Numbered from the stretch's first letter, positions 1 through 32,650 are shown. The stretch: 64,000 nt of DNA from Candidatus Methylomirabilota bacterium (GCA_046727155.1 JBKPCB010000070.1:40-64039); one strand, 5' to 3'. Numbers and translations: made by a program. The notes: generated by a model from the letters alone, not told the origin.

Positions 1-1
1 G

Positions 2-283
2 CTGGCCTACCTTACGCTGAAGGAGTCCGGGCTCGAGCCCATCGGCGTCTTCGCCGCTCAGCCCGACGGCCAGTTCCTCGGCTTCACCGTTCGGCCTGTG
101 GCCGAGCTCGGCGAAGAAGAGTTCGACGCCGTTGTCGTGGCGACCTTCGACCGCCCTGAGGAGCCCGTCGCCCAGCTCTTACGGCTCGGCATCCCACAGT
201 CGAAGTTCCTGACCCTTCGCCGGCTCGCCGGGCCAGCGGCGGGGTCCGAGGCTTCACCCAACTCAAAGGAGAGCAAGGCATGA
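2..283 (+). CDS. C-terminal part of a protein running in from the window edge; probably an EPS-associated MarR/winged-helix regulator with a Rossmann-like C-terminal domain
   Basis: Frame open from position 2: LAYLTLKESGLEPIGVF...EEFDAVVVATFDRPE; its stop overlaps the next ATG (ATGA 280-283). Family call is from memory of similar C-termini. Confidence 0.5.
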   Translation: MAYLTLKESGLEPIGVFAAQPDGQFLGFTVRPVAELGEEEFDAVVVATFDRPEEPVAQLLRLGIPQSKFLTLRRLAGPAAGSEASPNSKESKA

Positions 284-522
284 AGGAGTTTCTCAAAGGC
301 AATTACAAGGTGGACGCCGCGATCAAGGAAAGCGAGGCGGAAGCCGAAGCGGGCGCCACCGAGGCCTTCGAGCGCAAGGCGCTGTCCCGGCTGGGCGGCA
401 GCATCTGCTTCGTGAGCAAGAAGAATTTCCTCTGGGAAGGCGACAAGCAGCAGGGCGAGGTGAAGCCGAAGGCGAGCCGAGCGGATACGAAAGATGGAAC
501 AGCGAAAGCGCGCCAAGACTGA
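280..522 (+). CDS. Small hypothetical protein (80 aa)
   Basis: ATGA overlap with the upstream stop and TGATG overlap with the downstream start; AAGGAG upstream; host-like codons. Confidence 0.7.
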   Translation: MKEFLKGNYKVDAAIKESEAEAEAGATEAFERKALSRLGGSICFVSKKNFLWEGDKQQGEVKPKASRADTKDGTAKARQD

Positions 523-1535
523 TGAACCTCGGGAAGCGGATCGCCAGCGGGCTTAAGGACGCGACTTTCGAGCGCGTCGCCGCGGTGGGGCTGGCCAATG
601 CGGAGCTCAATCGGCCGCGGATCGGCCGGTCGGTGCTCGAGCTCGGCCGGGCCTCTCTCGGCAAGGGCGACGTCGCGCTCGTGGTGGGCGCGGGACCGAG
701 CCTTCAGCGGCGGCGCAGCCTGGAGCGGCTCAAGGCCTCCGGCTTCGCCGGCACCATCGTGGCCGCCGACGGGGCGCTGGGCGCCTGTTTGCGCGCGGGA
801 GTTGTCCCGCACGTGGTCGTGAGCGTCGACCCGCATCCCGAGCGCATCGTCCGCTGGTTCGGCGATCCAGCGCTGACGGCGGCGGGTGCGGACGACTATT
901 TCAGGCGCCAGGAGATGGACCCGACGCACCATGGCGACGAGGTGGCCGCCAACCGCGCCCTCGTGGATCTGGTGGACGCCCACGGCCCGCGGATCAAGGT
1001 CGCCGTCGCCACCTCCGCGGCGCCGGCGGTGGTGGACCGCTGTGAGAAGGCCGGCATGGAGCTCTACTGGTGGAACCCGATGTACGACGACTACGACCGG
1101 CCGGGCAGCGTGTCGCGCCGGCTCTATGAAATGAACGGCCTGCCGTGCCTCAACGGCGGCGGCAATGTGGGCACCGCCGCCTGGGTCCTCGCCCACGCCG
1201 TGCTGAAGAAGCATCGCGTCGGCCTGATCGGCATGGATCTCTCCTACGCACCCGGCACCCCGTACGAGAAAACCCAGTACTACCCGGAGCTGGTGGAGCT
1301 GTTCGGTGACCGCCACACCGAGGCCTTCGTCCATGTCACCAATCCCCATCTCGGGGAGACGTGGTTCAGTGATCCCGCCTACTACTGGTTCCGCGAGGTC
1401 TTCCTCGAAATGGCGGCCGAGGCGACCTGCGAGACCTACAACTGCACCGAGGGCGGCGTGCTCTTCGGCCCGGGCATCGCCACGGTGCGGCTCGAAGAAT
1501 TCCTGGGGACAGGGAAGGACGGCCAGCATGGCTAA
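522..1535 (+). CDS. DUF115 / MAF_flag10 (Maf, MptE-like) family protein
   Basis: Motifs VVGAGPSL, ADGA, VSVDP, GGNVGT, IGMDLSY and YNCTEGG are typical of the family. Confidence 0.75.
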   Translation: MNLGKRIASGLKDATFERVAAVGLANAELNRPRIGRSVLELGRASLGKGDVALVVGAGPSLQRRRSLERLKASGFAGTIVAADGALGACLRAGVVPHVVVSVDPHPERIVRWFGDPALTAAGADDYFRRQEMDPTHHGDEVAANRALVDLVDAHGPRIKVAVATSAAPAVVDRCEKAGMELYWWNPMYDDYDRPGSVSRRLYEMNGLPCLNGGGNVGTAAWVLAHAVLKKHRVGLIGMDLSYAPGTPYEKTQYYPELVELFGDRHTEAFVHVTNPHLGETWFSDPAYYWFREVFLEMAAEATCETYNCTEGGVLFGPGIATVRLEEFLGTGKDGQHG

Positions 1536-3072
1536 GGTGCTCTTCGTCAATCCGCTGATCCGCGAGGAGGACGACCCGCGCCACGTGCCCTACGGCATGG
1601 CCCTGCTCGCTTCCCTGGCCATGCGCGACGGCCACCTCGTTCAGGTCTACGACCACAATGCCTGGCGCGCCCCGGACTCGGTGCTGGCCCAGGTGCTCAA
1701 GGCCGACGCATGGGACGTGATCGCGATCGGTGGCATCACCACCGCCTATCGCTCGATCAAGCACATCACCGCCATGGCCAGTGAGGTCGCGCCCCGGGCC
1801 CTGCGCGTCGCCGGCGGCGGCTTCCTCACCAGCATGCCGCACGACATCATGCGCTTTCTGCCCCAGGTGGACGTGGGAGCGGTGGGCGAAGCGTTCGTTT
1901 CGTTCCTCGAGCTGCTGCGGCGGGTGGACGCCGGCAATCGCGAGTGGGCCGAGGTCAAAGGCCTGATCTGGCGCGACCCCTCGGGCAAGAGCCATCTCAA
2001 CCCGGAGCAGCCGCTGCTCGAGGACCTCGACAGCCTGCCGTATCCCGCGTGGGAGCTGTTCCCGCTCGAGGTGTACTTCAAGAACAGCATGGCGCTCTTC
2101 TCCGAGGAGGGTATGCTGTCGCGCCGCCGGCTGGACATCAATGCCAGCTACGGCTGCTCGCTGATCTGCCGCTTCTGCTTCCACCTGGGCATCTCGGGGG
2201 ACATGAAGCAGGTGGAGAACGCGCAGGGCGAGCCCGACGTGACCTTCACCTACGACCGGAACATCCGCTACCACAGCCCGCGCTATGTGGTGAACCTGGT
2301 CAAGTACGCTCGGGAGCGCTTCGGCGTGGACTTTATCGGCTTCCTCGACGAGAACCTGATGACCATGCACCAGTTCTCGGGCAAAAAGTGGCTCACCGAC
2401 ATCGCCCGGCTGTGGATCGAGGACGGCCTCCAGCCCCAGTGCGTGCGCGACGGTGTGCCCCATGACCCGGAGAAGTGCTCGGGCGTCCACTGGGGCGGCA
2501 CCAGCCACGCCACGCTCTGCTCGCCCGAGGTGCTGCGGGCCATCAAGCAGTCGGGCTGCTCGCACCTGGTCTACGGCTACGAATCATTTTCGGCGCGGGT
2601 GATGAAGACCATCGGCAAGGGCGCCACGCCGGAAACCAACGAGCGCTCGCTCAAGTGGACGCTCGAGGCCGGGATCCGGCCGATTCCGAACCAGATGATG
2701 GGCTTCCCCGACGAGGATTTCGACAGCCTCAAGGACAACGTGCGCGCGTGGAACCGCCTGGGCCTCAACGTCAAGCCGTTCTTTGCGACGCCGTATCCCG
2801 GCACCGAGTGGTACTACGCCAATAAGCAGCGCATCCTCGACCAGTACGGCGGCGATCTCGAGGCCTTCCTGCTCGACGTGGGCGACGCCACCCGGGTGAC
2901 CGCCGTCATCTGCAAGAAATTCAATGCGGTGGAGCTCTACGGACTGCGCGAGCTCATGGTTCTGAGGGACCTCAAGCGCATCGAAGAGTACGAGAACGAG
3001 TGGAAACGGATTCACGCCCATGACACCCCCGCGCCGGCTCCGCCGCCGATCCTCGAGCGGGCCCGCGCGTAA
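1528..3072 (+). CDS. B12-binding radical SAM protein
   Basis: N-terminal cobalamin-binding domain (VNP...PYGMALLA, GG motifs) and CxxxCxxC (CSLICRFC), FLDEN, GYES, PYPGT; ATG at 1528 overlaps the previous gene. Confidence 0.9.
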   Translation: MAKVLFVNPLIREEDDPRHVPYGMALLASLAMRDGHLVQVYDHNAWRAPDSVLAQVLKADAWDVIAIGGITTAYRSIKHITAMASEVAPRALRVAGGGFLTSMPHDIMRFLPQVDVGAVGEAFVSFLELLRRVDAGNREWAEVKGLIWRDPSGKSHLNPEQPLLEDLDSLPYPAWELFPLEVYFKNSMALFSEEGMLSRRRLDINASYGCSLICRFCFHLGISGDMKQVENAQGEPDVTFTYDRNIRYHSPRYVVNLVKYARERFGVDFIGFLDENLMTMHQFSGKKWLTDIARLWIEDGLQPQCVRDGVPHDPEKCSGVHWGGTSHATLCSPEVLRAIKQSGCSHLVYGYESFSARVMKTIGKGATPETNERSLKWTLEAGIRPIPNQMMGFPDEDFDSLKDNVRAWNRLGLNVKPFFATPYPGTEWYYANKQRILDQYGGDLEAFLLDVGDATRVTAVICKKFNAVELYGLRELMVLRDLKRIEEYENEWKRIHAHDTPAPAPPPILERARA

Positions 3073-3087
3073 GAAGAAAGGATTCCC

Positions 3088-4071
3088 GTGAAACTCGCCA
3101 TCATCGGACTCGGCAGCATCGGCCGGCGCCACCTCGGCAACTTCAGCGCGATTGGGGTGGAAAGCCTCAGCGGATTCGACGCCGCGCAAGCCCAACGGGA
3201 GGCGGCCGCCAAGGACTTCCCGTTTGCCGCGATCGCCTCCAGCGTGGAGGCGGCGCTCGACGGCGCCGACGCAGCGGTAATCTGCACCCCGCCGGATTCC
3301 CACGTGACGCTCGGGCGCCAGGCCGCCGAGCGAGGTGCCCACCTGATGGTGGAAAAGCCCTTCGCCCAATCGGTCGAAGGCGTCGAGGAGCTCCTCAAGC
3401 TCTGCGATGCGAAAGGCCTCAAGGTGCTGACCGCCTATAACTGGCGTTACTGGCCGCCCATGCTCCTGGTCGAGAAGCTGATCAAGGACGGCCGAATCGG
3501 ACCCATCCGTGCGGCCCGCACCGAATACGCCTACCACCTGACCATCCGCTATCCCGGCAAGGACTACCGGCAGTTCTACATGGCCGACGTCAAGCAGGGC
3601 GGAGGCTGCGTGCTCGACGAGAGCCACGCCATCGATTACATGCGCTGGCTCTGCGGGGAGATCGCCGAAGTGAGCGCGGTCGTCGAGCGGGTCTCGAGCC
3701 TCGAGATCACCACCGACGACATCGCCGATCTCACGGTGCGCTTTGCCTCGGGCACCATAGGCAATATCCACATGAATCTCTTCGCCTGGAATATGCACAG
3801 CCACTTCGAGCTGATGGGCGAGGCGGGCGTGATCCAGTGGCGCCGGTTCGACAACGAGATCCGGCTCTTCGATCCCAAGGCCAACCGCTGGGAGATCTAT
3901 CCGTTCTCCTGCCAGCTCAACGACATGTACGTCGAGGAAGCCAAGCACTTCCTGGCGTGTGTCCGCGGCGAGGCCACTCCCAGGTGCGACGGCTGGGACG
4001 GGCTGAAGACCATGCGCGTGATCGAGGCGGCCCAGAAGGCGTCCGCGGAGAAGCGCTGGGTGCGGGTGTAG
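3088..4071 (+). CDS. Gfo/Idh/MocA family oxidoreductase (PtmF/ElaA-like)
   Basis: IIGLGSIG Rossmann motif, ICTP..SH, MVEKP, GGG..LDESHAID. Confidence 0.9.
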   Translation: MKLAIIGLGSIGRRHLGNFSAIGVESLSGFDAAQAQREAAAKDFPFAAIASSVEAALDGADAAVICTPPDSHVTLGRQAAERGAHLMVEKPFAQSVEGVEELLKLCDAKGLKVLTAYNWRYWPPMLLVEKLIKDGRIGPIRAARTEYAYHLTIRYPGKDYRQFYMADVKQGGGCVLDESHAIDYMRWLCGEIAEVSAVVERVSSLEITTDDIADLTVRFASGTIGNIHMNLFAWNMHSHFELMGEAGVIQWRRFDNEIRLFDPKANRWEIYPFSCQLNDMYVEEAKHFLACVRGEATPRCDGWDGLKTMRVIEAAQKASAEKRWVRV

Positions 4072-4160
4072 TGCGAGCCGAGGCACGGCCGACGAGCCGC
4101 GGGCGAGGAGCGTGACGAGGTGAGCGGTGAAATGGTTCGAAAAATGCGAGCCGAGCGAGC

Positions 4161-4916
4161 GTGAGCGTGGCGAGTTCGCCCTACGCTTTCGGGATCATCC
4201 CAGCGCGCGGCGGCTCCAAGGGGCTGCCGGGGAAGAACCTGCGCCGGCTGGGCGCGCTGAGCCTCATCGGCCACGCCGTGGCCTCGGCGCGCGAAGCCCG
4301 GCTCCTCAATCGCTTCATCGTTTCCACGGACAGTCCCGAGATCGCCGAGGAAGCCCGGCGTCACGGCGCTGAGGTGCCCTTCGTGCGCCCCGCCGAGCTG
4401 GCCAGCGACCAGGCGGGGATGCTCGGCGTGCTCCAGCATGCCGTGCGCTGGCTCGAGAGCGCGGCGGGGGTCAGGCCCGATCTCGTGGTGACGCTCCAGC
4501 CCACCTCGCCATTTCGCGTGGGCGCCGACATCGACAGGACCATCGAGAAGGTGAGTGCCACCGGCGCCGATTCGGGCCAGACCCTCTGCGAGGCCTCGTA
4601 CCACCCGTTCTTCATGAAGACGCTGGAGGGGGACCGCACCGTGGCCCTCTTCCCCGACGGGCATAAGTACGTGCGACGTCAGGACGCGCCCGCCGTCTAT
4701 CAGCCCTCCGGCGCAGTCTACGTCACGCGCTATCACGTGCTGATGGAGCAGGGGCATATCCTCGGCGACGACAACCGCGGCGTGGTGATGGGGTTCGAGG
4801 CATCGGCCAATATCGACACCGAGTGGGACTTCATGCTGGCCGAGCTCATCCTCCGCGAGGGGCGGGCGCCTATCCCTCCCGCCCGGGTGATGCCGTGGCA
4901 GCCCGCCGACTCCTGA
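4161..4916 (+). CDS. neuA: Acylneuraminate (nonulosonate) cytidylyltransferase
   Basis: IIPARGGSKGLPGKN, VSTDS, LQPTSPFR, NIDT..DF. Confidence 0.92.
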   Translation: MSVASSPYAFGIIPARGGSKGLPGKNLRRLGALSLIGHAVASAREARLLNRFIVSTDSPEIAEEARRHGAEVPFVRPAELASDQAGMLGVLQHAVRWLESAAGVRPDLVVTLQPTSPFRVGADIDRTIEKVSATGADSGQTLCEASYHPFFMKTLEGDRTVALFPDGHKYVRRQDAPAVYQPSGAVYVTRYHVLMEQGHILGDDNRGVVMGFEASANIDTEWDFMLAELILREGRAPIPPARVMPWQPADS

Positions 4917-5500
4917 TCCTGGGCGCCGGCGGTCACGCGCGCGCCGTCGCCGACGTTGCGGCCGAGTGCGGCTGGACCGTGGCGGGCTTCACCGATCGGC
5001 CGGGCGGAGCTGCCCGACCCGACGTGCTGGGCGACGATACCCAGGTCGCCGAACTGGTCCGCTCTGGCAAAGCTGACGCGGCCGTCGTGGGTGTTGGCAA
5101 TACGGCGCTCGGCCGTAGAGTTGAGCTGTTCGAGATCCTCAGGAAAGCCGATGCGGTCATTCCCAGCCTCGTCCATCCGCGGGCCATTGTGTCGCGGAGC
5201 TGTGCGATCGGCGACGGAGCGGTGGTCTTCGCGGGGGTCGTTCTGGGCGCTGGCGTCACGGTCGGGGAGAATGCGGTGCTCTACAGCAATGCCGTCGCCG
5301 AGCACGATTGCCGCATCGCCGCCCATGCCTACCTCTCGCCCGGCGTCATTCTCTGCGGCGGCGTGACGGTGGAAACCCTGGCCTTCATTGGGGCCGGCGC
5401 CGTAATTCTGCCGGGAGTCACGGTCGGGACACGCGCCATGGTCAGGGCCCGCGATCTGATCCGGAGCGATGTGCGCGTGGGAGGCAAACGCGAGTCGTGA
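4895..5500 (+). CDS. neuD: NeuD/PglD-type sugar acetyltransferase (hexapeptide repeats)
   Basis: LILGAGGHARAV, VGVGN, LVHP, VAEHDC, FIGAGAVILPG; GTG start at 4895. Confidence 0.85.
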   Translation: MAARRLLILGAGGHARAVADVAAECGWTVAGFTDRPGGAARPDVLGDDTQVAELVRSGKADAAVVGVGNTALGRRVELFEILRKADAVIPSLVHPRAIVSRSCAIGDGAVVFAGVVLGAGVTVGENAVLYSNAVAEHDCRIAAHAYLSPGVILCGGVTVETLAFIGAGAVILPGVTVGTRAMVRARDLIRSDVRVGGKRES

Positions 5501-7461
5501 GTCGCATCCTCCTCGTTGGCCAGTCCACTCGCGGCTACGGCGAGTTCCGCCGGCCCTGGGTGCGGGCGCTCTACCGGCGCTACGTCGCGCGCTATCGGCG
5601 CCGCCTCGTCGAGGCCGCGGTTCGGCTCGCGCCGGCTGGCGAGCTGACGGTGCTCGCGGCGCGGGAGCTGGTGGACGATCCGCGGCTGCCCGCCGGGACG
5701 CGCGTCTGTTACTACGACGAGGAGTCCTTCAAGGTCGACTCCGGCGAGCTGGCGCGGCTCACCCGTCGATTCACGACCGATTGGTGGCCTGCGGAGGCCG
5801 AGGCGCCGGAGCTGCTCCACCGCGGCGTCTGGCTGCCGGACGTCATCGCCGTGGTCCGCGGGATCGTGCTGCGCTCGGAGGTTATCGAGCCGCTCGGGAT
5901 CGCCGAGCGAGTGTGGCAAGACGCCAAGCCGGCCCGCCTGGTGCTGCTCACCGGCACCTCGATGCTGGAGCGGCTCTGCCGGCTGCTGGCCGAGCGCGAA
6001 CGGGTGCCCATCGAGGTGGCCGCGCCCGGCTTCGCCGCCGCCCACGCCTATGGATGGATCGCGCGGGCGCTCCAGCCGCGGGAGGAGCGGCTGAGGCTCC
6101 GCGAATTCCTCTCCTTTCCCCGTAGCGCGGTGCGGACCGGCGCGGCTGATGGCGCGCGGCGGATCCTGTTCGTCACGTGCCGCCCCCGCCATCATTTCGT
6201 CGTCGACCCGCTGACCACGGCGGTTCGAGCCACGGGAGGCGAGCCCCGTGTTATCGCCACGCCGGCGCGCGATGCGGAGCTGGCCTCGCGGCTCGAGGCG
6301 CTCGGAAAAAGCGGCGTGGCGTGCGATTACCTATCCGATTATCTGCCGCGCGCCGACGCGCTGGCGCTCGTGCGGCGCTACCGGCCGGCGCTCCGCGATC
6401 TATGGCGCAGGGTCGAGCGACGGCCGGAGTTCGCGCGAACTCTCGAACGCAACGGGCTGCCGCTGGCCGCCGTCACGCGGCCGATTCTCAGGGATTCGGT
6501 GGAGCGCACCCTGCTGGTGGCCCTCCTCTTCCAGGAGGCCGCTTTCCGCGCGCTGGACGCGCTGGCCCCCACCGCCGTGGTCGTGACCAGCAACCGGCGT
6601 TACGCGGAGCGGGCCCTCGTGCTGGCCGCCAAAGTGCGGAAGATCCCGTGCCTGCTCTTTTCCGGCACCCTCGTCATGGGCCGCGACCGGGCGGAGCTCT
6701 TCGACATCGGCGACCGGATGGTCGTCATCGGCGAGCACCTCAAGGAGCGCCTCGTCGCCGAGCAAGGCGTCGCGGCGTCGCTCATCTCGGTCGTGGGAGA
6801 TCCGCGCTCCAATGCGGCGCGGCTGATCCCGCCCACCGACCTCCGGCATCAGGTCTTCGCCGACTTCGGCCTGGCGCCGGGGAAGCCGCTTCTGGTGTTT
6901 CTCTCCAAGTATGTGTCGCTGCTCTTTTCGTCGCAGGAGAAGGAAGCCTACTACCGGACGATGATCGGCGCCTTGCCCGCTCTCGGACATCCCAACGTGG
7001 TGGTGAAGGTGCACCCCAATGAGAATCTGAGCCTGCTGAGCGAGCAGGTGAGGCGGTGGGGCTGGCCCGAGGCGATCCTGACCAAGGAGTACGACATCCA
7101 CCGCCTCTTGGCCGTGGCCGACGCCGCCGTGATGGTTACCTCCATGGCGGGCCTCGAAGCCATGGCCCTCGACTGCCCGGTGGTCTCGGTGCAGGCGGCG
7201 GGGAAGGACTACGAGGGCGAGTTCATGCCGCCCTATGTCAGTGAAGGCGTCGTGCAGCGGGTTGACATGGAGGACTCCGCGGCGCTGGCTGCGGCGCTGA
7301 AGCGACTCACCGGCGATCCCGACCGCCGCCAGGCCGTGGTCGAGCGCGGGCGAAAGTTCGCCGCCCGCTACGTCCACCCGGTGGACGGCGGCCTCGGCGA
7401 GCGGCTCCTCTCGGTGGTCGACGAGGTCCGCGGCGAGCTCGCGGGAGGCCGCACGCGATGA
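5497..7461 (+). CDS. 654-aa protein with a C-terminal GT-B-like domain; candidate nonulosonate transferase
   Basis: C-terminal VGDPR, VKVHPNE, ADAAVMVTSMAGLEA motifs resemble GT-B/epimerase/glycerophosphotransferase folds; GTGA and ATGA overlaps at both ends. Confidence 0.6.
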   Translation: MSRILLVGQSTRGYGEFRRPWVRALYRRYVARYRRRLVEAAVRLAPAGELTVLAARELVDDPRLPAGTRVCYYDEESFKVDSGELARLTRRFTTDWWPAEAEAPELLHRGVWLPDVIAVVRGIVLRSEVIEPLGIAERVWQDAKPARLVLLTGTSMLERLCRLLAERERVPIEVAAPGFAAAHAYGWIARALQPREERLRLREFLSFPRSAVRTGAADGARRILFVTCRPRHHFVVDPLTTAVRATGGEPRVIATPARDAELASRLEALGKSGVACDYLSDYLPRADALALVRRYRPALRDLWRRVERRPEFARTLERNGLPLAAVTRPILRDSVERTLLVALLFQEAAFRALDALAPTAVVVTSNRRYAERALVLAAKVRKIPCLLFSGTLVMGRDRAELFDIGDRMVVIGEHLKERLVAEQGVAASLISVVGDPRSNAARLIPPTDLRHQVFADFGLAPGKPLLVFLSKYVSLLFSSQEKEAYYRTMIGALPALGHPNVVVKVHPNENLSLLSEQVRRWGWPEAILTKEYDIHRLLAVADAAVMVTSMAGLEAMALDCPVVSVQAAGKDYEGEFMPPYVSEGVVQRVDMEDSAALAAALKRLTGDPDRRQAVVERGRKFAARYVHPVDGGLGERLLSVVDEVRGELAGGRTR

Positions 7462-8519
7462 GTCCGCGCGCGTTCACGGTGGCGGGGCGCGCGATCGGTG
7501 ACGGCGCGCCCGTCTTCATCGTGGCCGAGGCCGGCGTCAACCACAACGGCGACATGTCGCTGGCCCGCCGGCTGGTGGAGGCGGCGGCCGATGCCGGCGC
7601 CGACGCGGTGAAGTTCCAGACCTTCAGCACCGATGCTTTGGTGAGCCGGGAGGCGCCCAAGGCGACATACCAGCGCGAGAGCACCGGGGACGGCGAAAGC
7701 CAGCGCGACATGCTGGCCCGTCTCGAGCTCACCGCGGACCAGCATGCGGAGCTCCAGCAGCGGTGCGGCAAGCGGGGCCTCGTCTTCTTCTCCGCGCCCT
7801 TCGACGAGCGGGCCGCGGACGCCCTCGAGTCACTCGACGTTCCGCTCTTCAAGATCCCGTCGGGCGAGATCACCAACCTGCCGCTCCTCCGCCACATTTC
7901 CGCCAAGGGACGTCCCGTCATCCTCTCCACCGGCATGTCCACGGTCGACGAGGTCGAGACCGCCGTGGCGGCCATCCGCGATTCGGGCGACCCGCCGCTC
8001 GCGCTCCTTCACTGCCTCTCCGCCTACCCGGCTCCCGCGGCCGAGGTGAACCTGCGAGCCATGGACGTCCTGCGCCAGCGATTCGGCGTCCCGGTCGGGC
8101 TTTCGGATCACACGCTCGGGATCGAGGTCGCGGTGGCCGCGGTGGCGCGCGGCGCGCGCATTGTCGAGAAGCACCTGACTCTGGACAAGACGCTGCCGGG
8201 GCCCGACCACCGCGCGTCGCTCGATCCCGCGGAGTTCGGTGCGCTCGTCAGCGCGATCCGCTCGGTTGAGTCCGCCCTCGGCGACGGCGAGAAGCGCCCG
8301 ATGCCTTCCGAGATGGACACGCGCCGGGTGGCGCGGAAGAGCCTCGTCGCGGCGCGGGCGATTCGCGCCGGCGAGCGGCTCACGGCCGAGATGATCCGCG
8401 TCAAGCGACCCGGCACCGGCATCCCGCCAGCCGAGTTGGAGCGCGCTCTGGGCCGCCCGGTCAAGCGTGCCCTGGCCGCCGACCAGGTGATCGGCTGGGA
8501 GGATCTGGCAGAGCGATGA
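7458..8519 (+). CDS. neuB: Nonulosonic acid synthase with C-terminal SAF domain
   Basis: IVAEAGVNHNG, AVKFQT, KIPSGEITN, LSTGMS, LHCLSAYP, GLSDHT, EKHLT, KRPGTGI. Confidence 0.95.
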   Translation: MSPRAFTVAGRAIGDGAPVFIVAEAGVNHNGDMSLARRLVEAAADAGADAVKFQTFSTDALVSREAPKATYQRESTGDGESQRDMLARLELTADQHAELQQRCGKRGLVFFSAPFDERAADALESLDVPLFKIPSGEITNLPLLRHISAKGRPVILSTGMSTVDEVETAVAAIRDSGDPPLALLHCLSAYPAPAAEVNLRAMDVLRQRFGVPVGLSDHTLGIEVAVAAVARGARIVEKHLTLDKTLPGPDHRASLDPAEFGALVSAIRSVESALGDGEKRPMPSEMDTRRVARKSLVAARAIRAGERLTAEMIRVKRPGTGIPPAELERALGRPVKRALAADQVIGWEDLAER

Positions 8520-9691
8520 GCGCCGCCATGCGAAGCGTCGCTGCCGTCACGGTGAGCCGCTCGGACTGGGGGCACCTGCGCCCCGTCCTCGAGGCCATCC
8601 GCTCCAGGCCGGGGCTTTCGCTTCAGCTCTATGTGGCGGGGATGCATCTCGAGCCCGACTTCGGTCTCACAGTCCGGGACATCGAGCGAGACGGCTGGCC
8701 CATCGCGTCGCGGATCCCGATGCTCGAAACCGACGATTCGCCATCGGGAGTGGCGGCCTCCACGGGGAAGGGGATCGAGGGCTTCGCGCGCGCGTATGCC
8801 GAGACGCGACCCGACCTCGTGGTCGTCCTGGGCGATCGCTTCGAAATGCTGGCGGCCGGCGTCGCGGCCCTTCCCTTCGCGCTCCCCGTGGCTCACATCC
8901 ATGGCGGCGAGGAGACGGAAGGCGCGATGGACAATCAGATCCGTCACGCCATCACCAAGCTCGCCCATATCCATTTCGCCTCTGCCGATCTCCACGCCCG
9001 GCGGATAGCCCAAATGGGGGAGGAGGCATGGCGCATCCACACGGTGGGCGCCCCGGGCCTCGACCGACTGAGCGTGGCGACCTACCGCTCGCGCGAGGCG
9101 CTTGCAGGATCGCTCCGCCTCGACGCCGAGGCGAAGTGGCTCCTGGTCACCTTCCATCCGGTAACGCTCGAGTACCGGGATACCGCGGCGCATGTCACCG
9201 AGCTCCTGGCCACCCTCGAGAAAGCCGACGCCCAGATCGTGATGACCTATCCGAATGCAGACACGGCGGGCCGGCTCATCATCGAGCGTATCGAGGATTT
9301 CGCCTCCCGGCACCCGCGGGTGACGCTGGCCCGCTCGCTCGGGGACGAGACCTACCTCTCGCTGCTCAAGCACGCCGACGCCATGGTGGGCAATTCCTCG
9401 AGCGGCCTCATCGAGGCGCCGTCCTTCGGCCTGCCGGTGGTGAATATCGGAAACCGTCAGCGCGGCAGGCTGCGCGGGGCCAATGTCATCGACGTGGGCT
9501 ATGGCCGCGAGGACATCCTGCGGGGGCTCGAGCGGGCGCTGGAGCCCGGCTTCCGCGCCACGCTCAAAGGCATGGCCAATCCCTATGGCGATGGCCGGGC
9601 CGCGCCGCGGATCGCCGAGGTGCTTCGCACTGTCCCACTCGACGCGCGACTGATCCAGAAGCGCTTTGCCGAGGGGAGCGTGTCAGCATGA
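8516..9691 (+). CDS. neuC: Hydrolysing NDP-N-acetylglucosamine 2-epimerase (NeuC/LegG)
   Basis: VTVSRSDWG, LGDRFEML, HIHGGEET, IRHAITKL, TFHP, VGNSSSG, NIGNRQ, YGDG. Confidence 0.93.
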   Translation: MSAAMRSVAAVTVSRSDWGHLRPVLEAIRSRPGLSLQLYVAGMHLEPDFGLTVRDIERDGWPIASRIPMLETDDSPSGVAASTGKGIEGFARAYAETRPDLVVVLGDRFEMLAAGVAALPFALPVAHIHGGEETEGAMDNQIRHAITKLAHIHFASADLHARRIAQMGEEAWRIHTVGAPGLDRLSVATYRSREALAGSLRLDAEAKWLLVTFHPVTLEYRDTAAHVTELLATLEKADAQIVMTYPNADTAGRLIIERIEDFASRHPRVTLARSLGDETYLSLLKHADAMVGNSSSGLIEAPSFGLPVVNIGNRQRGRLRGANVIDVGYGREDILRGLERALEPGFRATLKGMANPYGDGRAAPRIAEVLRTVPLDARLIQKRFAEGSVSA

Positions 9692-10743
9692 CCGACCTGA
9701 CGCATGTCCTGATCAGGGAAGGCGCCACGCTGCGCCAGGTGCTCGAGGCCATGACCCGAAGCGGGAAGCAAATCGTTTTGGTCGTCGATGTCGACCGGCG
9801 CCTCGTTGGGGTCGTCACCGATGGCGACGTCCGCCGAGCGATGCTTCGCGGCGCCACGCTCGACGCCAAGGTCGAGGAAGTGGTCAACCGCAAACCCCTG
9901 ACCTTCCCGGCCGGTCTGCCGCCCGCCGAGGCCCTCGCCGTCATGCGGGATCGCTCCGTGCGTCACCTCCCCGTGCTCGACGCCGACCATCGCGTGCTGG
10001 GCCTCCTACGACTCGAGGATTTACTCGCACCGCCGCCGCTGACAGCCCGCGCCGTGATCATGGCTGGCGGGGAGGGCAGGCGCCTCAAGCCATTGACCGA
10101 GGCCACTCCCAAGCCGCTGATCGCTGTTGGCGGCAAGCCGCTGATCGAAATCATGATCGAGCGGCTTCGGCAGTCCGGCATCGCCAGCGTGCTGATCGCG
10201 GTGCACCACAAGGCGGACATGATCCGCGACCGGCTGGGCGACGGCTCACGGCTTGGGGTGACCATCGAATACATCGAGGAGCCCGAGCCGCTGGGCACGA
10301 TGGGGGCCCTGCCGCTCATGCGCGAGCGGCTCGATGCGCCCTTCTTCGTTGTCAATGCCGACATCCTGACCAAGTGCGACTTCCGCGCGATGTGGGACTA
10401 CCACCGGGGCCTGGAGTACCCCGCCATGACCGTCGGCGTGTCGCTGCACCAGGTGGACATTCCCTATGGCGAGTTCACGTTGCACGAAGGCCGGGTCACA
10501 CGGGTGGAGGAAAAGCCCCGCAAAGAATTCCCGGTCAATGCGGGGATCTATCTGCTCGACCCGTCGGCCATCGATCTGATCCCGGCGGGAGAGTACTTCG
10601 ACGCAACGGACATGATCCGCGCGCTGGTGGACCGGGGCAAGTTCGTCGCGGCCCACCTGATCCGCGAATACTGGCTGGACGTCGGTCGGGCTCACGACCT
10701 CGAAAAAGCCAACCGAGATGTTGCCGAGGGGCTGCTCGACTGA
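9688..10743 (+). CDS. CBS-domain nucleotidyltransferase (PtmE-like sugar-1-phosphate guanylyltransferase)
   Basis: N-terminal CBS pair (GVVTDGDVRR), then AVIMAGGEGRRLKPLT..PKPL, E.EPLGT, NADILT, NAGIY, W.DVG. Confidence 0.88.
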   Translation: MTDLTHVLIREGATLRQVLEAMTRSGKQIVLVVDVDRRLVGVVTDGDVRRAMLRGATLDAKVEEVVNRKPLTFPAGLPPAEALAVMRDRSVRHLPVLDADHRVLGLLRLEDLLAPPPLTARAVIMAGGEGRRLKPLTEATPKPLIAVGGKPLIEIMIERLRQSGIASVLIAVHHKADMIRDRLGDGSRLGVTIEYIEEPEPLGTMGALPLMRERLDAPFFVVNADILTKCDFRAMWDYHRGLEYPAMTVGVSLHQVDIPYGEFTLHEGRVTRVEEKPRKEFPVNAGIYLLDPSAIDLIPAGEYFDATDMIRALVDRGKFVAAHLIREYWLDVGRAHDLEKANRDVAEGLLD

Positions 10744-10745
10744 TC

Positions 10746-12038: not shown

Positions 12039-13017
12039 GGCCCTGATCCTCGGAGGCGCGGGCTTCATCGGATATCACCTGGCGTCGCGGCTGGCCGGGG
12101 AAGGGCATGCGCTCACCCTGGTGGACGATCTCTCGCGCGGCCGTCGCGATCACGAGCTCGACGCGCTCTGCTCCCGGCCCAACGTGACGTTCATCCAGGC
12201 CGATCTGACGAGCCCGGGCGCGCTCGACGGCCTCCCGCGCGATTGGAGCCAGGTTCATATGCTGGCCGCCGTGGTCGGGGTCCGCAACGTGGAAACCGAT
12301 CCGGCGCGCGTGATCCGGGTCAATACCCTCGCCCTCATGAATGTGCTCGACTGGCTGCCCGGGCGCGGCGAGATCCTCTTCTTCGCCTCGACCAGCGAGA
12401 CCTATGCCTCCGGCGTGATGGGCGGCAGCGTGCCGGTGCCGACGCCGGAGGACGTGCCGCTCTCGGTCTCGGACGTGACGGCCCCGCGGTTTGCCTATGC
12501 GGCGAGCAAGATCCTGGGCGAGGCGGCCGTGGTTCACACCGCGAGGGCGCGCGGGCTGAAATACGTCATCGGCCGCTTCCACAATGTCTACGGCCCGCGA
12601 ATGGGCGCCGATCACGTCATCTCGGAGCTTTCGCTTCGCGCCGCCCGTCGCGAGGACCCCTTCAGGCTCTACGGCGCCGAGCAGCGGCGGGCCTTTTGCC
12701 ACGTGGCCGATGCCGTGGAGGCGGTAACGCGGCTGGTCGCGACGGAGGCGGCCTGGGGCCGGATCGTCAATATCGGCAATGACGCCGAGGAGACCAGGGT
12801 CGAGGACCTGCTGCGGCTGGTTCTCGCGGCGGCGGCGTTCAAACCCAGGATCGTCCGGATGCCCGCCCCCGCGGGGTCGGTGGCCCGGCGCTGCCCCGAC
12901 ATCGGCCGGCTGCGCTCGCTCACCGGGTTCACGCCCAAAGTGTCGCTCGAGGCGGGCGTGAAGGAGACGTTCGAGTGGTACCGCGCCTCCTGGGAGCGGG
13001 AAGGAGCGCGGCCGTGA
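12031..13017 (+). CDS. NAD-dependent epimerase/dehydratase (extended SDR)
   Basis: GGAGFIG, STSETY, YAASK (YxxxK), RFHNVYGPR. Confidence 0.9.
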   Translation: MAKALILGGAGFIGYHLASRLAGEGHALTLVDDLSRGRRDHELDALCSRPNVTFIQADLTSPGALDGLPRDWSQVHMLAAVVGVRNVETDPARVIRVNTLALMNVLDWLPGRGEILFFASTSETYASGVMGGSVPVPTPEDVPLSVSDVTAPRFAYAASKILGEAAVVHTARARGLKYVIGRFHNVYGPRMGADHVISELSLRAARREDPFRLYGAEQRRAFCHVADAVEAVTRLVATEAAWGRIVNIGNDAEETRVEDLLRLVLAAAAFKPRIVRMPAPAGSVARRCPDIGRLRSLTGFTPKVSLEAGVKETFEWYRASWEREGARP

Positions 13018-26464: not shown

Positions 26465-26486
26465 CCGCGCGCCGCCCGCACCCGCC

Positions 26487-28999: not shown

Positions 29000-29000
29000 C

Positions 29001-30236
29001 GTGACCGCGCTCCGGCGCATCCTCTTTGCGGCATTCGTCCTCGGTCTCGGCCTGTCCATCACGCTCTCCGAGACGGCGCTCGCGCTGCTGACTCTGCTGT
29101 GGCTGTGGACGCTCAGGGCGCCGCACGCGCGCGCCGCCGCGCTATGGCCGCTCCTGCCACCGGTGCTGGCATTCGGCGGCGTCACGGTGCTCTCAGCCCT
29201 CGCCTCGGGCCATGCCGGCTCGAGCCTCGGTGCCGCCAAGGGTCTGCTGCTGGTCGCCGCGCTTTATGTCACTGCCAACATCGTGAAGGGCCACACCGCA
29301 GCCGACCGCTTTCTCTGGGCGCTGGCGCTCGTCGTGGCGGTGGCCGCCGCCGTGGGACTTCTGCAGGTGAGCCTCTGCCCGGCCTCGCCGGCGCCCGAGC
29401 TGTCGCCCCGATGGCTCTACCATCGGTGCGACCGGGCCCGCGCTTTCTTCAGCATCTACATGACCCTCGCGGGGATTCTGACCATGGTGCTACTGGCCAC
29501 TCTGCCGCGGGTGCTGCCCGGGCGCGCGTTTCGGGCCTGGGCGCTGCCGCCGTGGTTGATCTCGCTGGCCGCGCTCATCGCGACCTTCACGCGGGGGGCC
29601 TGGGCTGGCTTCGCCGCCGGGGCGATGGCGCTGTTGCCGGCGGCGCGACCGCGCACGCGATGGCTCATCGTTGCCGGGCTGGTCGCCTTGGTGGCGGCGC
29701 TGCTGGCCATGCCTTACGAGGTTCGAGTGCGGTTCCTCACGTTGAACGAGCTCCGGCACCGTGTCCTTACGATGGCCGATCCCCATGAGGCCGGCGTCAC
29801 CGAGCGCCTTTACATGTGGCGGAGCGGGCTGGCCATATGGCGCGAGCACCCGCTGCTCGGGGTGGGGCCGGGCGGCGTCAAGCGCGAGTACGTCAACTAT
29901 GCGTTGCCCGAGGCGGTCAAGCAGCGCACGGGACACGTGCACAATACCCCGCTCCAGATTCTCGTCGAGCGGGGCGTCCTCGGGCTCGCGGCCTGGCTGT
30001 GGCTGTTCGGCGCCTTCTATCTCCGGGCGATCGGACTGCTGCGGCGGCTGCCTCGGGAGGCCGCGCGGGAGCGCGCACTGGTGGCCGGAAGCCTGGCGGC
30101 GATCACAGGGTTCCTGATCGGGGGAGTGTCCGAATACAACTTCGGCGACACCGAGGTGGTGCTGGTCGCGTGGACCCTCATCGCGCTGCCCTTCGTGGTC
30201 GAGGCGGGGGAGCGGATGCCATCCCCGGGCCAATGA
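29001..30236 (+). CDS. O-antigen ligase family membrane protein (WaaL or O-oligosaccharyltransferase-like)
   Basis: Many TM helices; TFTRGAW, ERLYMW, GVGPG, HVHN..LQILVERG.LG. Confidence 0.85.
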   Translation: MTALRRILFAAFVLGLGLSITLSETALALLTLLWLWTLRAPHARAAALWPLLPPVLAFGGVTVLSALASGHAGSSLGAAKGLLLVAALYVTANIVKGHTAADRFLWALALVVAVAAAVGLLQVSLCPASPAPELSPRWLYHRCDRARAFFSIYMTLAGILTMVLLATLPRVLPGRAFRAWALPPWLISLAALIATFTRGAWAGFAAGAMALLPAARPRTRWLIVAGLVALVAALLAMPYEVRVRFLTLNELRHRVLTMADPHEAGVTERLYMWRSGLAIWREHPLLGVGPGGVKREYVNYALPEAVKQRTGHVHNTPLQILVERGVLGLAAWLWLFGAFYLRAIGLLRRLPREAARERALVAGSLAAITGFLIGGVSEYNFGDTEVVLVAWTLIALPFVVEAGERMPSPGQ

Positions 30237-32650
30237 CATCCGTGGATGGCGGGACTGACCCGGCCGGCGTCTCGGTCTCCTCGAGGCAGGCCGGACTCGG
30301 GCTCCTGCTCGTCCCGCTCCTGGCGCTGCTGAGCCACGGGCTGCCCCAGGATTACCCCGTCTGGGCCGCCGTCAAAGTCGTGTTCGCCGGGCTGACCGTG
30401 GGAGTCGTTCCCGGCGCGCTGGTCGTGCTCGCGGTGCGGCCGTGCGCCAGCCTCACGCTGCTCGAGGTATTCGGGATCGGCGTGGCCGTCAGCCTGGGCT
30501 GGATCCAGCTAGCCACCGTGATCAGCCTCACGCTGCACATCCCGGTTTCGGCGATGGCCATCGCGTGGGCGGGAACGGCGGCAACCGCGGCCGCGGTGCT
30601 CGCGATACGGAAGCCGCGGGACTCGCGTTGGGCCGTGCGGCTGGACACGCGCGAGGCGGTCATCGGCGGGTCGCTGCTCACGCTGGCGGTGCTGCTCTAT
30701 CTGAAGGGCGCCCCATTCCTGACATGGGACGACCAGGTGCACGCGGCGCTCGTCCGCCGGCTGGCCTACGTGCGACATCCGGCACTGGACAATCTGCATT
30801 TCCTCCCGAATCTGGTCTTCACCTATCCGTTTCCCGGCACTCACTTCCTCATGGCGCTCGTCAGCCAGCTGGGCGGCATCGACGCGCTGTTCGTGTTTCA
30901 CAAGCTCCGGTTCCTCTGGGGTGTGGCCGCCTTGACGTTTTTGTATCTGATCGCGCGCCGGGTGTTCGAAGACTTGCGACTGCCCTTCGTCGTCGCCGCG
31001 ACCGCGATCCTGTTCGTCCTCAACGGCTCGTTCGGCGACGGGCCGGATCTCGACTGGGGCCAGCTGGCGCCGCACAGCAATCCGGCCGACGTGGCGCTGA
31101 GCGTGCTGCTGCCCGCACTCCTCGTGATGGCGCTCTACTTTCTCGGGGCCGAGGGCAGGCGGACGTCGGCGTTCTTCCTCGTCGGCGGGTTCGCGGTCGC
31201 GGCCATGTTGGCAATGGTGCAGATACGCAGCATCGCGCAGTTCCTCGTCTATCTCGGCTGCTTCATGGTGGCGGTCCTGATCTTCGGACGCGACCGGAGG
31301 TATCTCGCGAGATGCGCGCTTCTCATCGGGGGAACGGTCGGAGTCGTCGCGGCCTACCTGTTGTTTTATCAGCTGACCGTCCCACACATCTCGGCCGCCG
31401 TGGACGTGCATCGGACGGCGATGCTGGCAGCGGCGCGGAGTTTTTCCCCGGCGCATTGGCTCTCCCCGCCGCTCGAGCTCGTGCCCGGTTTCGACTCGCT
31501 CTTCTGGAGCTGGCACCCGTTCATGCTCATCGCCAGCCCGCTCCTGCTGCTCGTCTTCCGCAAGAAGCCCTTGATGCTATTGGTGGGCGCGAGCATCTTC
31601 GCCTATCTCCTGCTGATCCGGGTCCCGGCGCTGACCCTGCTCTATGCCTATGCCACGCATTTCGAGATTCTGTCCTGGCCGGTGCGCAACGTGGGCATCT
31701 TCACCTATCTGCTGACCGGGGCATGCCTGTACGTGATCGCTGCAAACCTGGCGCGGATCCGACAGCGCGTTGTCGCCCTCACCGCCGCGGCCGGGATCGC
31801 CCTGGCCCTGGCGCTCACATGGAGCCGCGGGACGACGGTCTTCGTGGCCCAACGAGATCTGTTCTTTCTACCGGTCATCCTGATGTACGGAATCGCGCTT
31901 GTCGGCCTGCGGAGCCCGGAGAGGGACGCCTCCGGCGTGCGGGCCGAGGCCGAGACGGCCGGCCCCGCGTGGAAAGCACCGTTCATCGTGCTATTGGGTT
32001 TGCTGACGCTCCTCACCTCTATCCCGAAGAGCTCTCCGCTGGCCCTCGGGGCCCTTCACGACGGGATCGAGGCGTTCGCGTACTCTTCAAACGTTCCGTT
32101 GACTCCGAAGGCCTTGCTGACTGGGCTTCGATGCGTGGACGCGGAGAGGGCGGACCTGCCGCTTCTCCCGGTGGCCGGATCGCCGAAGAGCCTGAAGGCG
32201 CGCTACCCCTCATGCCCACCCAGCACCGGCCTGGTCCGGTGGTCCGAAACGGCGCTGGGCGAGGATGCGCTCGTGCTCGCGGACGCGACCGATCTCTACG
32301 CGCTCTCGGTGTTCATCCCGCAGCACGTGCTGACGGGCCTGCCTTGGAGGAGCCTGCCGATTTCCTGGGGCGGAGAGTACGTGCGGGGACTGTTTCCGGC
32401 GTACTTCCGGGCATTCGACCTCGCGATGCGGGAGCATGGGACGCAGCCGTTCTTCAACGAGCGCGAGTCCTCGGAAGAGAAGCTGGCCTTCCTGCAGACC
32501 GTCGGGATCACTCACATCTTCGTTCATGCGGCCCAGAGCACGGTCGTCGCGCCCCTGGTGCTTGACCGAACCGCCCTGCTTCGGAAGCTCTACGACGACG
32601 GCGAGTGGGCGGTCTATGAAGTTGTCGCCCGGAGGGGCGGACGCGCGTAA
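30233..32650 (+). CDS. 805-aa polytopic membrane protein, putative GT-C glycosyltransferase
   Basis: Many hydrophobic segments, an acidic WDDQVH motif in the first large loop, and a soluble C-terminal domain ending GITHIFV...LYDDGEWAVYEV; ATGA overlap. Confidence 0.55.
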   Translation: MTSVDGGTDPAGVSVSSRQAGLGLLLVPLLALLSHGLPQDYPVWAAVKVVFAGLTVGVVPGALVVLAVRPCASLTLLEVFGIGVAVSLGWIQLATVISLTLHIPVSAMAIAWAGTAATAAAVLAIRKPRDSRWAVRLDTREAVIGGSLLTLAVLLYLKGAPFLTWDDQVHAALVRRLAYVRHPALDNLHFLPNLVFTYPFPGTHFLMALVSQLGGIDALFVFHKLRFLWGVAALTFLYLIARRVFEDLRLPFVVAATAILFVLNGSFGDGPDLDWGQLAPHSNPADVALSVLLPALLVMALYFLGAEGRRTSAFFLVGGFAVAAMLAMVQIRSIAQFLVYLGCFMVAVLIFGRDRRYLARCALLIGGTVGVVAAYLLFYQLTVPHISAAVDVHRTAMLAAARSFSPAHWLSPPLELVPGFDSLFWSWHPFMLIASPLLLLVFRKKPLMLLVGASIFAYLLLIRVPALTLLYAYATHFEILSWPVRNVGIFTYLLTGACLYVIAANLARIRQRVVALTAAAGIALALALTWSRGTTVFVAQRDLFFLPVILMYGIALVGLRSPERDASGVRAEAETAGPAWKAPFIVLLGLLTLLTSIPKSSPLALGALHDGIEAFAYSSNVPLTPKALLTGLRCVDAERADLPLLPVAGSPKSLKARYPSCPPSTGLVRWSETALGEDALVLADATDLYALSVFIPQHVLTGLPWRSLPISWGGEYVRGLFPAYFRAFDLAMREHGTQPFFNERESSEEKLAFLQTVGITHIFVHAAQSTVVAPLVLDRTALLRKLYDDGEWAVYEVVARRGGRA

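Follow-up and report, generated by a model that had tools for sequence, protein, structure and literature searches.

What does a large cluster of sugar genes at the end of a contig from an uncultured soil lineage build, and to what would its product be attached? The question is raised by a stretch of 64,000 nucleotides from Candidatus Methylomirabilota bacterium (GCA_046727155.1 JBKPCB010000070.1:40-64039), called the window here, which corresponds to G000:C70:40-64039 in its source metagenome-assembled genome (MAG; G000, 2.85 Mb in 168 contigs, estimated 75% complete). The cluster, which takes up the first half of the window, most likely builds a methylated surface sugar chain with a sialic-acid-like sugar, a nonulosonic acid (NulO), and its product is not a flagellin glycan. 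As judged from the gene families, and with a probability of roughly 0.58, it would be the larger part of one co-directional, translationally coupled operon of a diderm methylomirabilotal bacterium for a Wzx/Wzy-type surface glycan based on undecaprenyl phosphate, the predicted product being an O-antigen- or capsule-like, acidic, O-methylated heteropolysaccharide.

Extent and gene content of the cluster

Because the G+C content of the window is ~69%, genes were picked by third-position GC and start-codon context, and they were then annotated with Pfam and NCBIfam. A series of 31 open reading frames (ORFs), all on the + strand, fills bases 2-32650. With the start calls of this analysis, 13 of the 30 junctions are 4-bp ATGA/GTGA overlaps and 6 more overlap by 1-22 bp (19 overlaps in total), the remaining 11 being gaps of 1-89 bp. 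The packing is thus operon-like and on one strand, and the cluster is real, tight and at least 32.6 kb long. It is truncated on the left, since contig C70 ends only 39 bp before the window. The right boundary at 32650 is real, because a convergent pair of anti-sigma and extracytoplasmic function (ECF) sigma factor genes comes next, together with housekeeping genes (folK/folB, dapAB, lysA, argH, rpoA and others). The convergent pair (32664-33906, - strand) encodes a 237-aa protein without a family match, taken as the anti-sigma factor, and the ECF sigma factor, and it is kept at that position in the relative G006 and the metagenome contigs L005 and L006. An Rfam scan of the window returned no riboswitch and no other RNA family.

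These data refine an original prediction, made from the sequence alone, that had placed a glycan locus at 1-32650. Its right limit stands, while its left end proved incomplete at the contig end and the 80-aa ORF at 280-522 was missing from its list. Its statement that nearly all genes overlap by ATGA/GTGA was overstated, given the 13 junctions of 30. By contrast, every gene class that it named was found on the + strand of 1-32650 by hidden Markov model annotation with Pfam and NCBIfam, in exactly the numbers given: legionaminic-type synthesis was borne out by NeuB, NeuC and LegC models above their curated cut-offs, and the six methyltransferases, the deacetylase, the six glycosyltransferases (GTs), the WcaJ-type initiator and the ligase-like protein were each confirmed by a family match.

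The genes assigned to NulO synthesis and embedded with it are the following:

P3, 3088..4071, + strand: Gfo/Idh/MocA NAD(P) oxidoreductase (PF01408, PF02894 and PF22725 above cut-off)
P4, 4161..4916, + strand: cytidine-monophosphate (CMP)-NulO synthetase, LegF/NeuA-like cytidylyltransferase (PF02348, 72.3 bits, above cut-off)
P5, 4895..5500 (start uncertain), + strand: NeuD/PglD-type N-acetyltransferase, LegH-like (PglD_N and Hexapep)
P7, 7458..8519, + strand: NulO synthase, NeuB/LegI (TIGR03569, 460.9 bits, cut-off 399.65)
P8, 8516..9691, + strand: hydrolysing 2-epimerase of a nucleoside-diphosphate (NDP) sugar, NeuC/LegG (TIGR03568, 444 bits, cut-off 235.9)
P9, 9688..10743, + strand: CBS pair plus sugar-1-phosphate nucleotidyltransferase, PtmE-like (two PF00571 and PF00483)
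P11, 12031..13017, + strand: epimerase/dehydratase of the short-chain dehydrogenase/reductase (SDR) type, LegB candidate by position (PF01370, 143 bits)
P12, 13014..14180, + strand: LegC-family aminotransferase (TIGR04181, 474.6 bits, cut-off 420)

By family assignment, this enzyme set is a legionaminic-type CMP-NulO pathway. Of its curated NCBIfam models, TIGR03569, TIGR03568 and TIGR04181 pass their cut-offs, as do TIGR03026 and TIGR03023 among the genes listed further on. P7 is of the NeuB and not of the PseI type (312 bits with the PseI model, under its cut-off of 340.25), and a NeuC-type hydrolysing 2-epimerase is absent from the pseudaminic pathway. The other members fit less closely. 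P4 scores 135 bits with the PseF equivalog (cut-off 205.7) and reaches no equivalog cut-off, P5 falls just under that of TIGR03570 (158.9 against 160.8 bits), and P9, which resembles PtmE of the GDP-linked route in its union of CBS and nucleotidyltransferase domains, has no NCBIfam equivalog above cut-off. The LegB model TIGR04180 (cut-off 475) gives 77 bits with P11 and 155 with the dehydratase P25. The pairing of P11 with LegC is kept in the relatives G006 and G024, and P3 stays beside the NulO genes in G006, G024, L008, L023 and L024.

The genes for further sugars, chain assembly and modification are these:

P10, 10746..12038, + strand: NDP-sugar 6-dehydrogenase, like UDP-ManNAc/GlcNAc dehydrogenases (TIGR03026, 279.3 bits, cut-off 189.8)
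P13, 14177..15019, + strand: class-I S-adenosylmethionine (SAM) methyltransferase (PF08241, 84.8 bits), without an ortholog in G006
P14, 15024..15809, + strand: polysaccharide deacetylase of carbohydrate esterase family 4 (CE4; PF01522, 40.1 bits, cut-off 23.1)
P15, 15806..17089, + strand: GT4 (PF00534, PF13692, PF13439)
P16, 17086..17748, + strand: SAM methyltransferase (PF08241, 37.5 bits)
P17, 17762..18955, + strand: GT4 (PF00534, 140 bits)
P18, 18952..19740, + strand: SAM methyltransferase (PF08241, 58.6 bits)
P19, 19740..20861, + strand: GT4 (PF00534, 111.7 bits)
P20, 20865..21662, + strand: SAM methyltransferase (PF08241, 36.8 bits)
P21, 21659..22624, + strand: SAM methyltransferase (PF13649, 60.7 bits)
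P22, 22621..23490, + strand: SAM methyltransferase (PF08241, 57.4 bits), no match in G006
P23, 23499..24293, + strand: GT2 (PF00535, 88.2 bits)
P24, 24295..25419, + strand: GT4 (PF00534, 149 bits), only a paralogous match in G006
P25, 25496..26464, + strand: NDP-hexose 4,6-dehydratase, Gmd-like (PF16363, 285.5 bits)
P26, 26487..27605, + strand: GT4 (PF00534, 88.5 bits)
P27, 27599..28999, + strand: WcaJ-type polyprenyl-phosphate hexose-1-phosphate transferase, the initiator (TIGR03023, 500.3 bits, cut-off 410.75)
P28, 29001..30236, + strand: polytopic membrane protein with a Wzy_C domain and ~10 transmembrane (TM) segments (PF04932, 94.2 bits, cut-off 31.7)

There are thus six class-I SAM methyltransferases (P13, P16, P18, P20, P21 and P22), five GT4 and one GT2 enzymes and one CE4 deacetylase. 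P10 suggests a hexosaminuronic acid and P25 a 6-deoxyhexose; P25 scores 181 bits with the gmd equivalog (cut-off 415). TM segments are seen in the sequence of P27. The Wzy_C domain of P28 is common to polymerases, WaaL ligases and O-oligosaccharyltransferases (O-OTases); PF04932 is the only Pfam family reported for it at E <= 0.001, and no PglL_A domain was found. The second Wzy_C gene of the MAG was of no help in identifying WaaL, as it encodes a 1016-aa fusion of Wzy_C with tetratricopeptide repeats, on contig C7, in an apparent exopolysaccharide locus of the polysaccharide co-polymerase (PCP) and tyrosine-kinase kind. By sequence inspection, the genes next to the fusion in this locus (G000 contig C7 978-12170) resemble those for a Wzz/GumC-type co-polymerase, a CpsD-type tyrosine kinase, an asparagine synthase and an HprK-like kinase, and their arrangement recalls PEP-CTERM/exosortase systems.

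In G006, L005 and L006, the cluster occupies one chromosomal position with its synteny kept, in support of the original prediction. The relatives used were G001, of the same genus, G024, of the same family, and G006, another genus of that family and 100% complete. G006 has almost the entire cluster at this position, in a version that lacks P29, P13, P22 and P24 and has an extra methyltransferase and deacetylase between the Maf and radical SAM genes. In the metagenome contigs L005 (P29 81% identical) and L006 and L007 (63%), the right half of the cluster is preserved, with the same housekeeping genes downstream of it. The locus is a patchy, variable surface-glycan island, typical of such loci, because among 41 relatives the Maf-like gene occurs in five, P29 in two and NeuB above cut-off in six. 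Running divergently from the G006 version of the locus (L020, G006:C28:136035-144024) are genes that, by sequence inspection, resemble those for an SDR, a bifunctional kinase/nucleotidyltransferase of the RfaE/HldE kind, a GmhA-like SIS isomerase, a radical SAM enzyme, a protein like the thiamine-pyrophosphate E1-alpha subunit and a second B12 radical SAM enzyme of 556 aa, which suggests a heptose-type pathway with more radical chemistry.

The missing left end was approached through eight inspected loci (the window, G001, G006, G024, L008, L023, L024 and L025). A Wzx flippase gene lies directly upstream of the regulator, P0b and Maf genes in G001, G024, L008 and L023, and an ABC_membrane plus ABC_tran exporter replaces it in that neighbourhood in G006, L024 and L025. 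That Wzx and the exporter alternate speaks for a transporter that flips a lipid-linked glycan. In the window, where the contig ends, no Wzx gene was found, nor was there one elsewhere in the 75%-complete MAG.

The Maf-like protein, its neighbours and two unclassified glycosyltransferase families

The remaining genes are those that set the cluster apart:

P0a, 2..283, + strand: C-terminal 93 aa of a ~210-225-aa regulator with a winged helix-turn-helix (wHTH; HTH_24) and a Rossmann-like part, cut by the contig end
P0b, 280..522, + strand: conserved 80-aa protein, its core invariant and its charged tail variable
P1, 522..1535, + strand: minimal Maf-like (DUF115/MptE-like) protein, 337 aa (PF01973, 60.5 bits, cut-off 34.6)
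P2, 1528..3072, + strand: class-B (B12-binding) radical SAM enzyme, 514 aa (PF02310, PF04055)
P6, 5497..7461, + strand: 654-aa protein of an unclassified family with a GT-B-like C-terminal half (sub-threshold PF13692 and TIGR04396)
P29, 30233..32650, + strand: 805-aa GT-C-fold glycosyltransferase with ~16 TM helices and a ~200-aa soluble C-terminal domain

The AlphaFold2 (AF2) model of P1 (mean predicted local distance difference test score, pLDDT, 94.5) has the Magnetospirillum Maf 5mu5 as its best PDB fold match in Foldseek (E 2.4e-8, prob 1.00), aligned over 319 columns of that 632-residue structure (TMt 0.29). Next come archaeal 6-hydroxymethylpterin pyrophosphokinase (HPPK) of the MptE type and the human sialyltransferase ST8SiaIII; a sequence search of the PDB returned MptE-type HPPK only. 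P1 keeps the GxGPS motif (as GAGPS) and several conserved Asp residues. It consists of the catalytic core only, without the flanking N- and C-terminal acceptor-binding domains of full Mafs (at least 440-820 aa), and scores 34 bits with the PseD model NF050051 (cut-off 670). On its predicted fold, P1 is a candidate CMP-NulO-dependent transferase.

Maf proteins had been linked to flagellin glycosylation in the original prediction. Flagellin (PF00669) occurs in none of the five genomes that carry the P1 gene (G000, G001, G006, G017 and G024), of which four are 93-100% complete, while five further relatives have it. This excludes P1 as a flagellin glycosyltransferase, and this part of the prediction falls.

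The surroundings of P1 are constant. P0b lies directly upstream of it in all eight inspected loci, with the wHTH regulator upstream, and the B12 radical SAM gene follows 0-2 genes downstream, again in eight of eight. P0a is 62% identical to a 224-aa protein of L008 and 61-75% identical to its counterparts in G006, G001 and G024, and PF13412 (HTH_24) is present in its full-length homologs. The family of P0b comprises 465 homolog clusters and has no Pfam entry. Its core of ~55 aa (FLKGNY...ALSRLGGSICFVSKK..W.G[ED]) ends in W-x-G-[ED], and the homolog alignment has 22 invariant columns, among them Cys43 in the motif ALSRLGGSICFVSKK. The tail varies and contains Ser and Thr; in longer family members it repeats a motif like QPKASRADTEDG.AKAR. 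Among the homologs of the eight loci, P0b is more conserved than the surrounding enzymes. It has neither a signal peptide nor a TM segment.

P0b is a candidate partner of the mini-Maf P1. Short Maf-2 enzymes require a small specificity factor encoded in cis, GlfM (bioRxiv 10.1101/2023.12.03.569772), and the P0b/P1 pair resembles GlfM/Maf-2 by analogy only. A reading of P0b as similar to a ribosomally synthesised and post-translationally modified peptide (RiPP), based on its conserved N-terminal part, its variable tail and the nearby ABC exporter and B12 radical SAM enzyme, was ranked low: the exporter alternates with Wzx at one position, its Pfam matches include no peptidase domain, and NulO sugar genes surround the module in every case.

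P2 has both domains above cut-off (PF02310, 39.1 against 32.1 bits; PF04055, 52.9 against 29.5), and its CxxxCxxC motif is seen as C-SLI-C-RF-C. With a weak PDB match to TokK and sub-threshold matches to several B12 radical SAM methylase families, it is a candidate C-methylase or other tailoring enzyme. Because this enzyme and the Gfo/Idh/MocA oxidoreductase P3 are embedded among the NulO genes, the NulO end product is probably a tailored derivative.

The gene for P6 lies between those of the acetyltransferase P5 and the synthase P7. In a scan of 30 members of its family, which has more than 185 homolog clusters, PF13692 (Glyco_trans_1_4) was found in 30, PF05159 (Capsule_synth) in 26 and DUF6716 in 18, all below threshold. 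Capsule_synth is the type of CMP-Kdo (3-deoxy-D-manno-octulosonate) transferases. P6 has no PDB sequence match, and none to the NCBIfam model of the Tannerella forsythia type at E <= 1e-5. In T. forsythia, the O-glycan is capped by genetically proven pseudaminic/legionaminic acid (Pse/Leg) transferases of the TagB/GT-B type (PMC5420450), which makes P6, by its family likeness, the more conventional of the candidates for joining the NulO to a sugar acceptor, as a glycan-directed NulO transferase.

P29 has no sequence match in Pfam, NCBIfam or the PDB, profile search of the PDB included. Its AF2 model (pLDDT 88.2, predicted TM-score 0.92) has a GT-C fold, which bears out the GT-C-like protein of the original prediction: the top 20 PDB fold matches are all GT-C proteins, 12 of them at E <= 1e-3, although with TM-scores of only 0.3-0.5, and include AftA, DPY19, STT3, AglB, PglB, AftB and EmbB. 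Conserved residues of the first long loop are [ED]166-D167, H170 and R175-R176; in a family alignment of 31 sequences, position 166 is E or D in all and position 167 D or E in 28. The 39 homolog clusters are all annotated as hypothetical. As P29 contains no WWDYG motif (there is no WWD in its sequence), it is not an STT3-type oligosaccharyltransferase, and it has no PF02516 match. Since G006 keeps the cluster without P29, P13, P22 and P24, P29 is probably an accessory, periplasmic decorating enzyme and not an essential attachment step.

A search of species-representative genomes found no P29-related loci. Distant GT-C genes of the P29 family stand in a different conserved module (L009 3889-16070, L011 3776-15014, L010 12941-20756 and L008 13297-22397) made up of a DegT aminotransferase, a radical SAM-SPASM protein, a GNAT protein, an unannotated protein of ~490-500 aa, an asparagine synthase, the GT-C protein, a small GT2, WbqC and an SDR. 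This module looks like an uncharacterised system for modification with a polyprenyl-phosphate amino sugar, and the small GT2 fits a polyprenyl-phosphate-sugar donor. P23 was considered as an ArnC/GtrB-like partner of P29 and rejected, as it is not orthologous to that small GT2. A second glycan locus of the MAG, seen by tblastn on G000 contig C128 (~400-13400), has two DegT aminotransferases, several SDRs, a GT2 and two paralogs of the 559-aa polytopic protein that adjoins the P29 homolog in L008.

Some genes further to the right also deserve mention. An AlgX-like SGNH protein and an MBOAT acyltransferase (45782-48379, - strand) form a polysaccharide O-acylation couple; they adjoin a stand-alone rpoA (44710-45708) and lie 13 kb downstream of the cluster. 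At 53789-55507 and 54712-55890 (- strand), two long ORFs overlap in different frames, one carrying a Methyltransf_11 domain and the other encoding a Zn-dependent alcohol dehydrogenase; the gene limits at 53789-55890 are uncertain.

The predicted product and its attachment

In the preferred reading of a Wzx/Wzy-type polysaccharide, family membership indicates that P9, P11, P12, P5, P8, P7 and P4 convert NDP-N-acetylglucosamine (NDP-GlcNAc, with GDP or UDP as the carrier) to a CMP-activated 5,7-diamino NulO, which, or a precursor of which, P3 and P2 might tailor, perhaps by C-methylation. P27, again by its family, starts the chain on polyprenyl phosphate. The five GT4 enzymes and the GT2 would lengthen it with sugars that include a hexosaminuronic acid (P10) and a 6-deoxyhexose (P25), and the six methyltransferases and the deacetylase would modify it. 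The NulO could be added by P6, by the minimal Maf P1 working with P0b, or by both. The lipid-linked unit would then be flipped by a Wzx that, judging from the relatives, is encoded just beyond the contig end; P28 would polymerise it or ligate it to lipid A-core or another acceptor, and P29 may add a periplasmic decoration from a polyprenyl-phosphate sugar. Lipid A-core is available as an acceptor, since all five genomes with the Maf-like gene have LpxC, and for the same reason a lipopolysaccharide O-antigen or a capsule-like product is at least as likely as attachment to protein.

Several points weigh against this reading. By sequence, P28 fits a Wzy polymerase, a WaaL ligase or an O-OTase alike, and no Wzz/PCP, Wza or other outer-membrane export gene is present among the window genes. 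With P11 far under the LegB model and P5 just under its cut-off, the sequence leaves the exact stereochemistry of the NulO unfixed. We can only infer the roles of P0b, P2 and P3, and which of P1 and P6 transfers the NulO. In addition, absences in a 75%-complete MAG are weak evidence, and those used here rest on more complete relatives.

The first competitor, general or S-layer protein O-glycosylation, appears clearly less probable than the O-antigen- or capsule-like polysaccharide. It holds that an unpolymerised, lipid-linked, methylated oligosaccharide of ~8-9 sugars, capped by the NulO, is flipped and moved en bloc to Ser/Thr of envelope proteins by P28 (as a PglL/WsaB-type enzyme) or P29. 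Wzy_C proteins do include O-OTases, but P28 lacks a PglL_A domain; the fold matches of P29 include STT3, AglB and PglB, yet it lacks WWDYG and is missing from G006, which keeps the cluster. The number of GTs would suit one long oligosaccharide, like the T. forsythia decasaccharide (in part PMC5420450), and the window holds no Wzz. Methylomirabilis cells have an S-layer, but the S-layer protein of M. lanthanidiphila, the sole one studied in the phylum, showed no N- or O-glycans (PMC8671808), and no acceptor gene is found in or beside our locus.

A division into two products is improbable, and ranks last. Here the left block (Wzx, HTH, P0b, P1, P2 to P12) would be self-contained: with P0b as its guide or its substrate, the mini-Maf would transfer a tailored legionaminic acid in the cytoplasm, without an intermediate, to a non-flagellar protein or peptide, and the right block (P13-P29) would make an unrelated methylated polysaccharide. 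The left block does recur as a unit with different neighbours in L008, L023, L024 and L025; however, P12 and P13 share an ATGA overlap, so that the blocks are translationally coupled, both stand together at the same site in G006, and the P0b, P6 and P29 homologs of L006 are all on one record of 117,444 bp. Characterised Mafs are all cytoplasmic protein glycosyltransferases, and the short Maf-2 enzymes require the small GlfM encoded in cis (bioRxiv 10.1101/2023.12.03.569772), whereas the flippase of the left block, Wzx or ABC, points to a lipid-linked acceptor. Likewise, the conserved core and variable, Ser/Thr-containing tail of P0b would suit an acceptor or guide, but a surface role of a glycosylated P0b is hard to see in a protein that has no signal peptide or TM segment.

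Within the cluster, the wHTH regulator, P0b, P1 and P2, with P6 and P29, might constitute a flagellum-independent route of NulO glycosylation, in which a two-part enzyme, the Maf core plus a small protein for specificity or as a carrier, attaches a radical-tailored, for example C-methylated, legionaminic acid to a non-flagellar protein or to a glycan on a lipid. We advance this tentatively and consider it rather unlikely; if true, it would be the first function for Maf-core proteins in non-motile bacteria.

The broader inference of the original prediction, a system of an uncultured lineage for assembling a methyl-rich glycan that contains a NulO, is upheld by the gene families apart from its Maf-flagellin link. 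Literature and structure searches returned no characterised equivalent, in agreement with the claim that the system is undescribed. Next to nothing is known of the cell surface of Methylomirabilota/Rokubacteria, which are uncultured and abundant in soil, and the locus predicts for them a surface polymer that is acidic, sialic-acid-like and heavily methylated, and for this last reason partly hydrophobic. It offers gene candidates for three unstudied enzyme families (a flagellin-free Maf core, a GT-B protein among NulO genes and a GT-C protein without a database model), and G000 and G001, with P29, P22 and P24, form with G006, which lacks them, a natural comparison for assigning functions. For the NulO field, it offers a case in which the roles of Maf-like proteins and B12 radical SAM enzymes outside flagellin glycosylation can be tested.

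Comparison with known systems

The legionaminic pattern of a dehydratase, LegC, an N-acetyltransferase, a NeuC-type epimerase, a NeuB-type synthase and a CMP-synthetase is found in Campylobacter, Halorubrum and Bacillus, and the window carries the same enzyme set as the CMP-legionaminic pathways of Campylobacter jejuni (LegB/C/H/G/I/F and PtmE), Bacillus subtilis (Sps) and Halorubrum sp. PV6 (PMC6137143, PMC7439481). It differs from them in its dehydratase P11, which is so far from the LegB model, and in the embedded Gfo/Idh/MocA oxidoreductase and B12 radical SAM enzyme.

The T. forsythia decasaccharide contains Pse/Leg, ManNAcA-type acids, a 6-deoxyhexose and O-methyl groups. In that organism, the NulO is the terminal sugar of a lipid-assembled, methylated, uronic-acid-containing oligosaccharide and is added by TagB/GT-B-type transferases (PMC5420450). 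The general protein O-glycosylation locus there, with the Pse/Leg transferases Tanf_01245 and TFUB4_00887, has its likeness here in P6, GT-B-like and embedded in NulO genes, although P6 lacks a match to the model of the T. forsythia transferases. The phylum is a different one, the window adds a Maf-like protein and a GT-C protein, and protein attachment is only hypothetical here.

With Maf flagellin glycosyltransferases (5mu5; Shewanella Maf-1 and Maf-2/GlfM), P1 shares the PF01973 domain, the fold, GxGPS and the Asp residues; unlike them, it has 337 aa without acceptor-binding domains and stands in genomes without flagellin. As in Shewanella Maf-2/GlfM, a small conserved protein encoded in cis adjoins the short Maf, but the four-helix GlfM is longer than P0b, and the likeness seen is one of position. 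P29, with its polytopic N-terminal part, soluble C-terminal domain and conserved acidic pair in the first long loop, resembles GT-C enzymes that use polyprenyl-phosphate sugars (AftA/AftB/EmbB, ArnT/GtrC-type and STT3/PglB/AglB). It differs from the GT-C enzymes of solved structure in its lack of a family or PDB sequence match and of WWDYG, and in its low TM-scores.

Legionaminic acid occurs in Wzx/Wzy clusters such as the Acinetobacter K loci and those for Legionella and Vibrio O-antigens. The locus shares with O-antigen and capsule clusters of this kind a WcaJ/WbaP-type initiator, serial GTs, Wzx (in relatives), Wzy_C and the Leg block in one locus, in bacteria that make lipid A; in contrast to them, it has six methyltransferases, a B12 radical SAM enzyme, a GT-C protein of a new family and a mini-Maf paired with a small protein, and neither Wzz nor Wza is found in the window. 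The logic of the locus, a Leg pathway joined to Wzx/Wzy-type assembly, is well known. What is unusual is the density of methyltransferases, the B12 radical SAM enzyme and oxidoreductase among NulO genes, the Maf core with a small partner in non-flagellated bacteria, the unclassified GT-B family of P6 and the GT-C family, without a database model, of P29.

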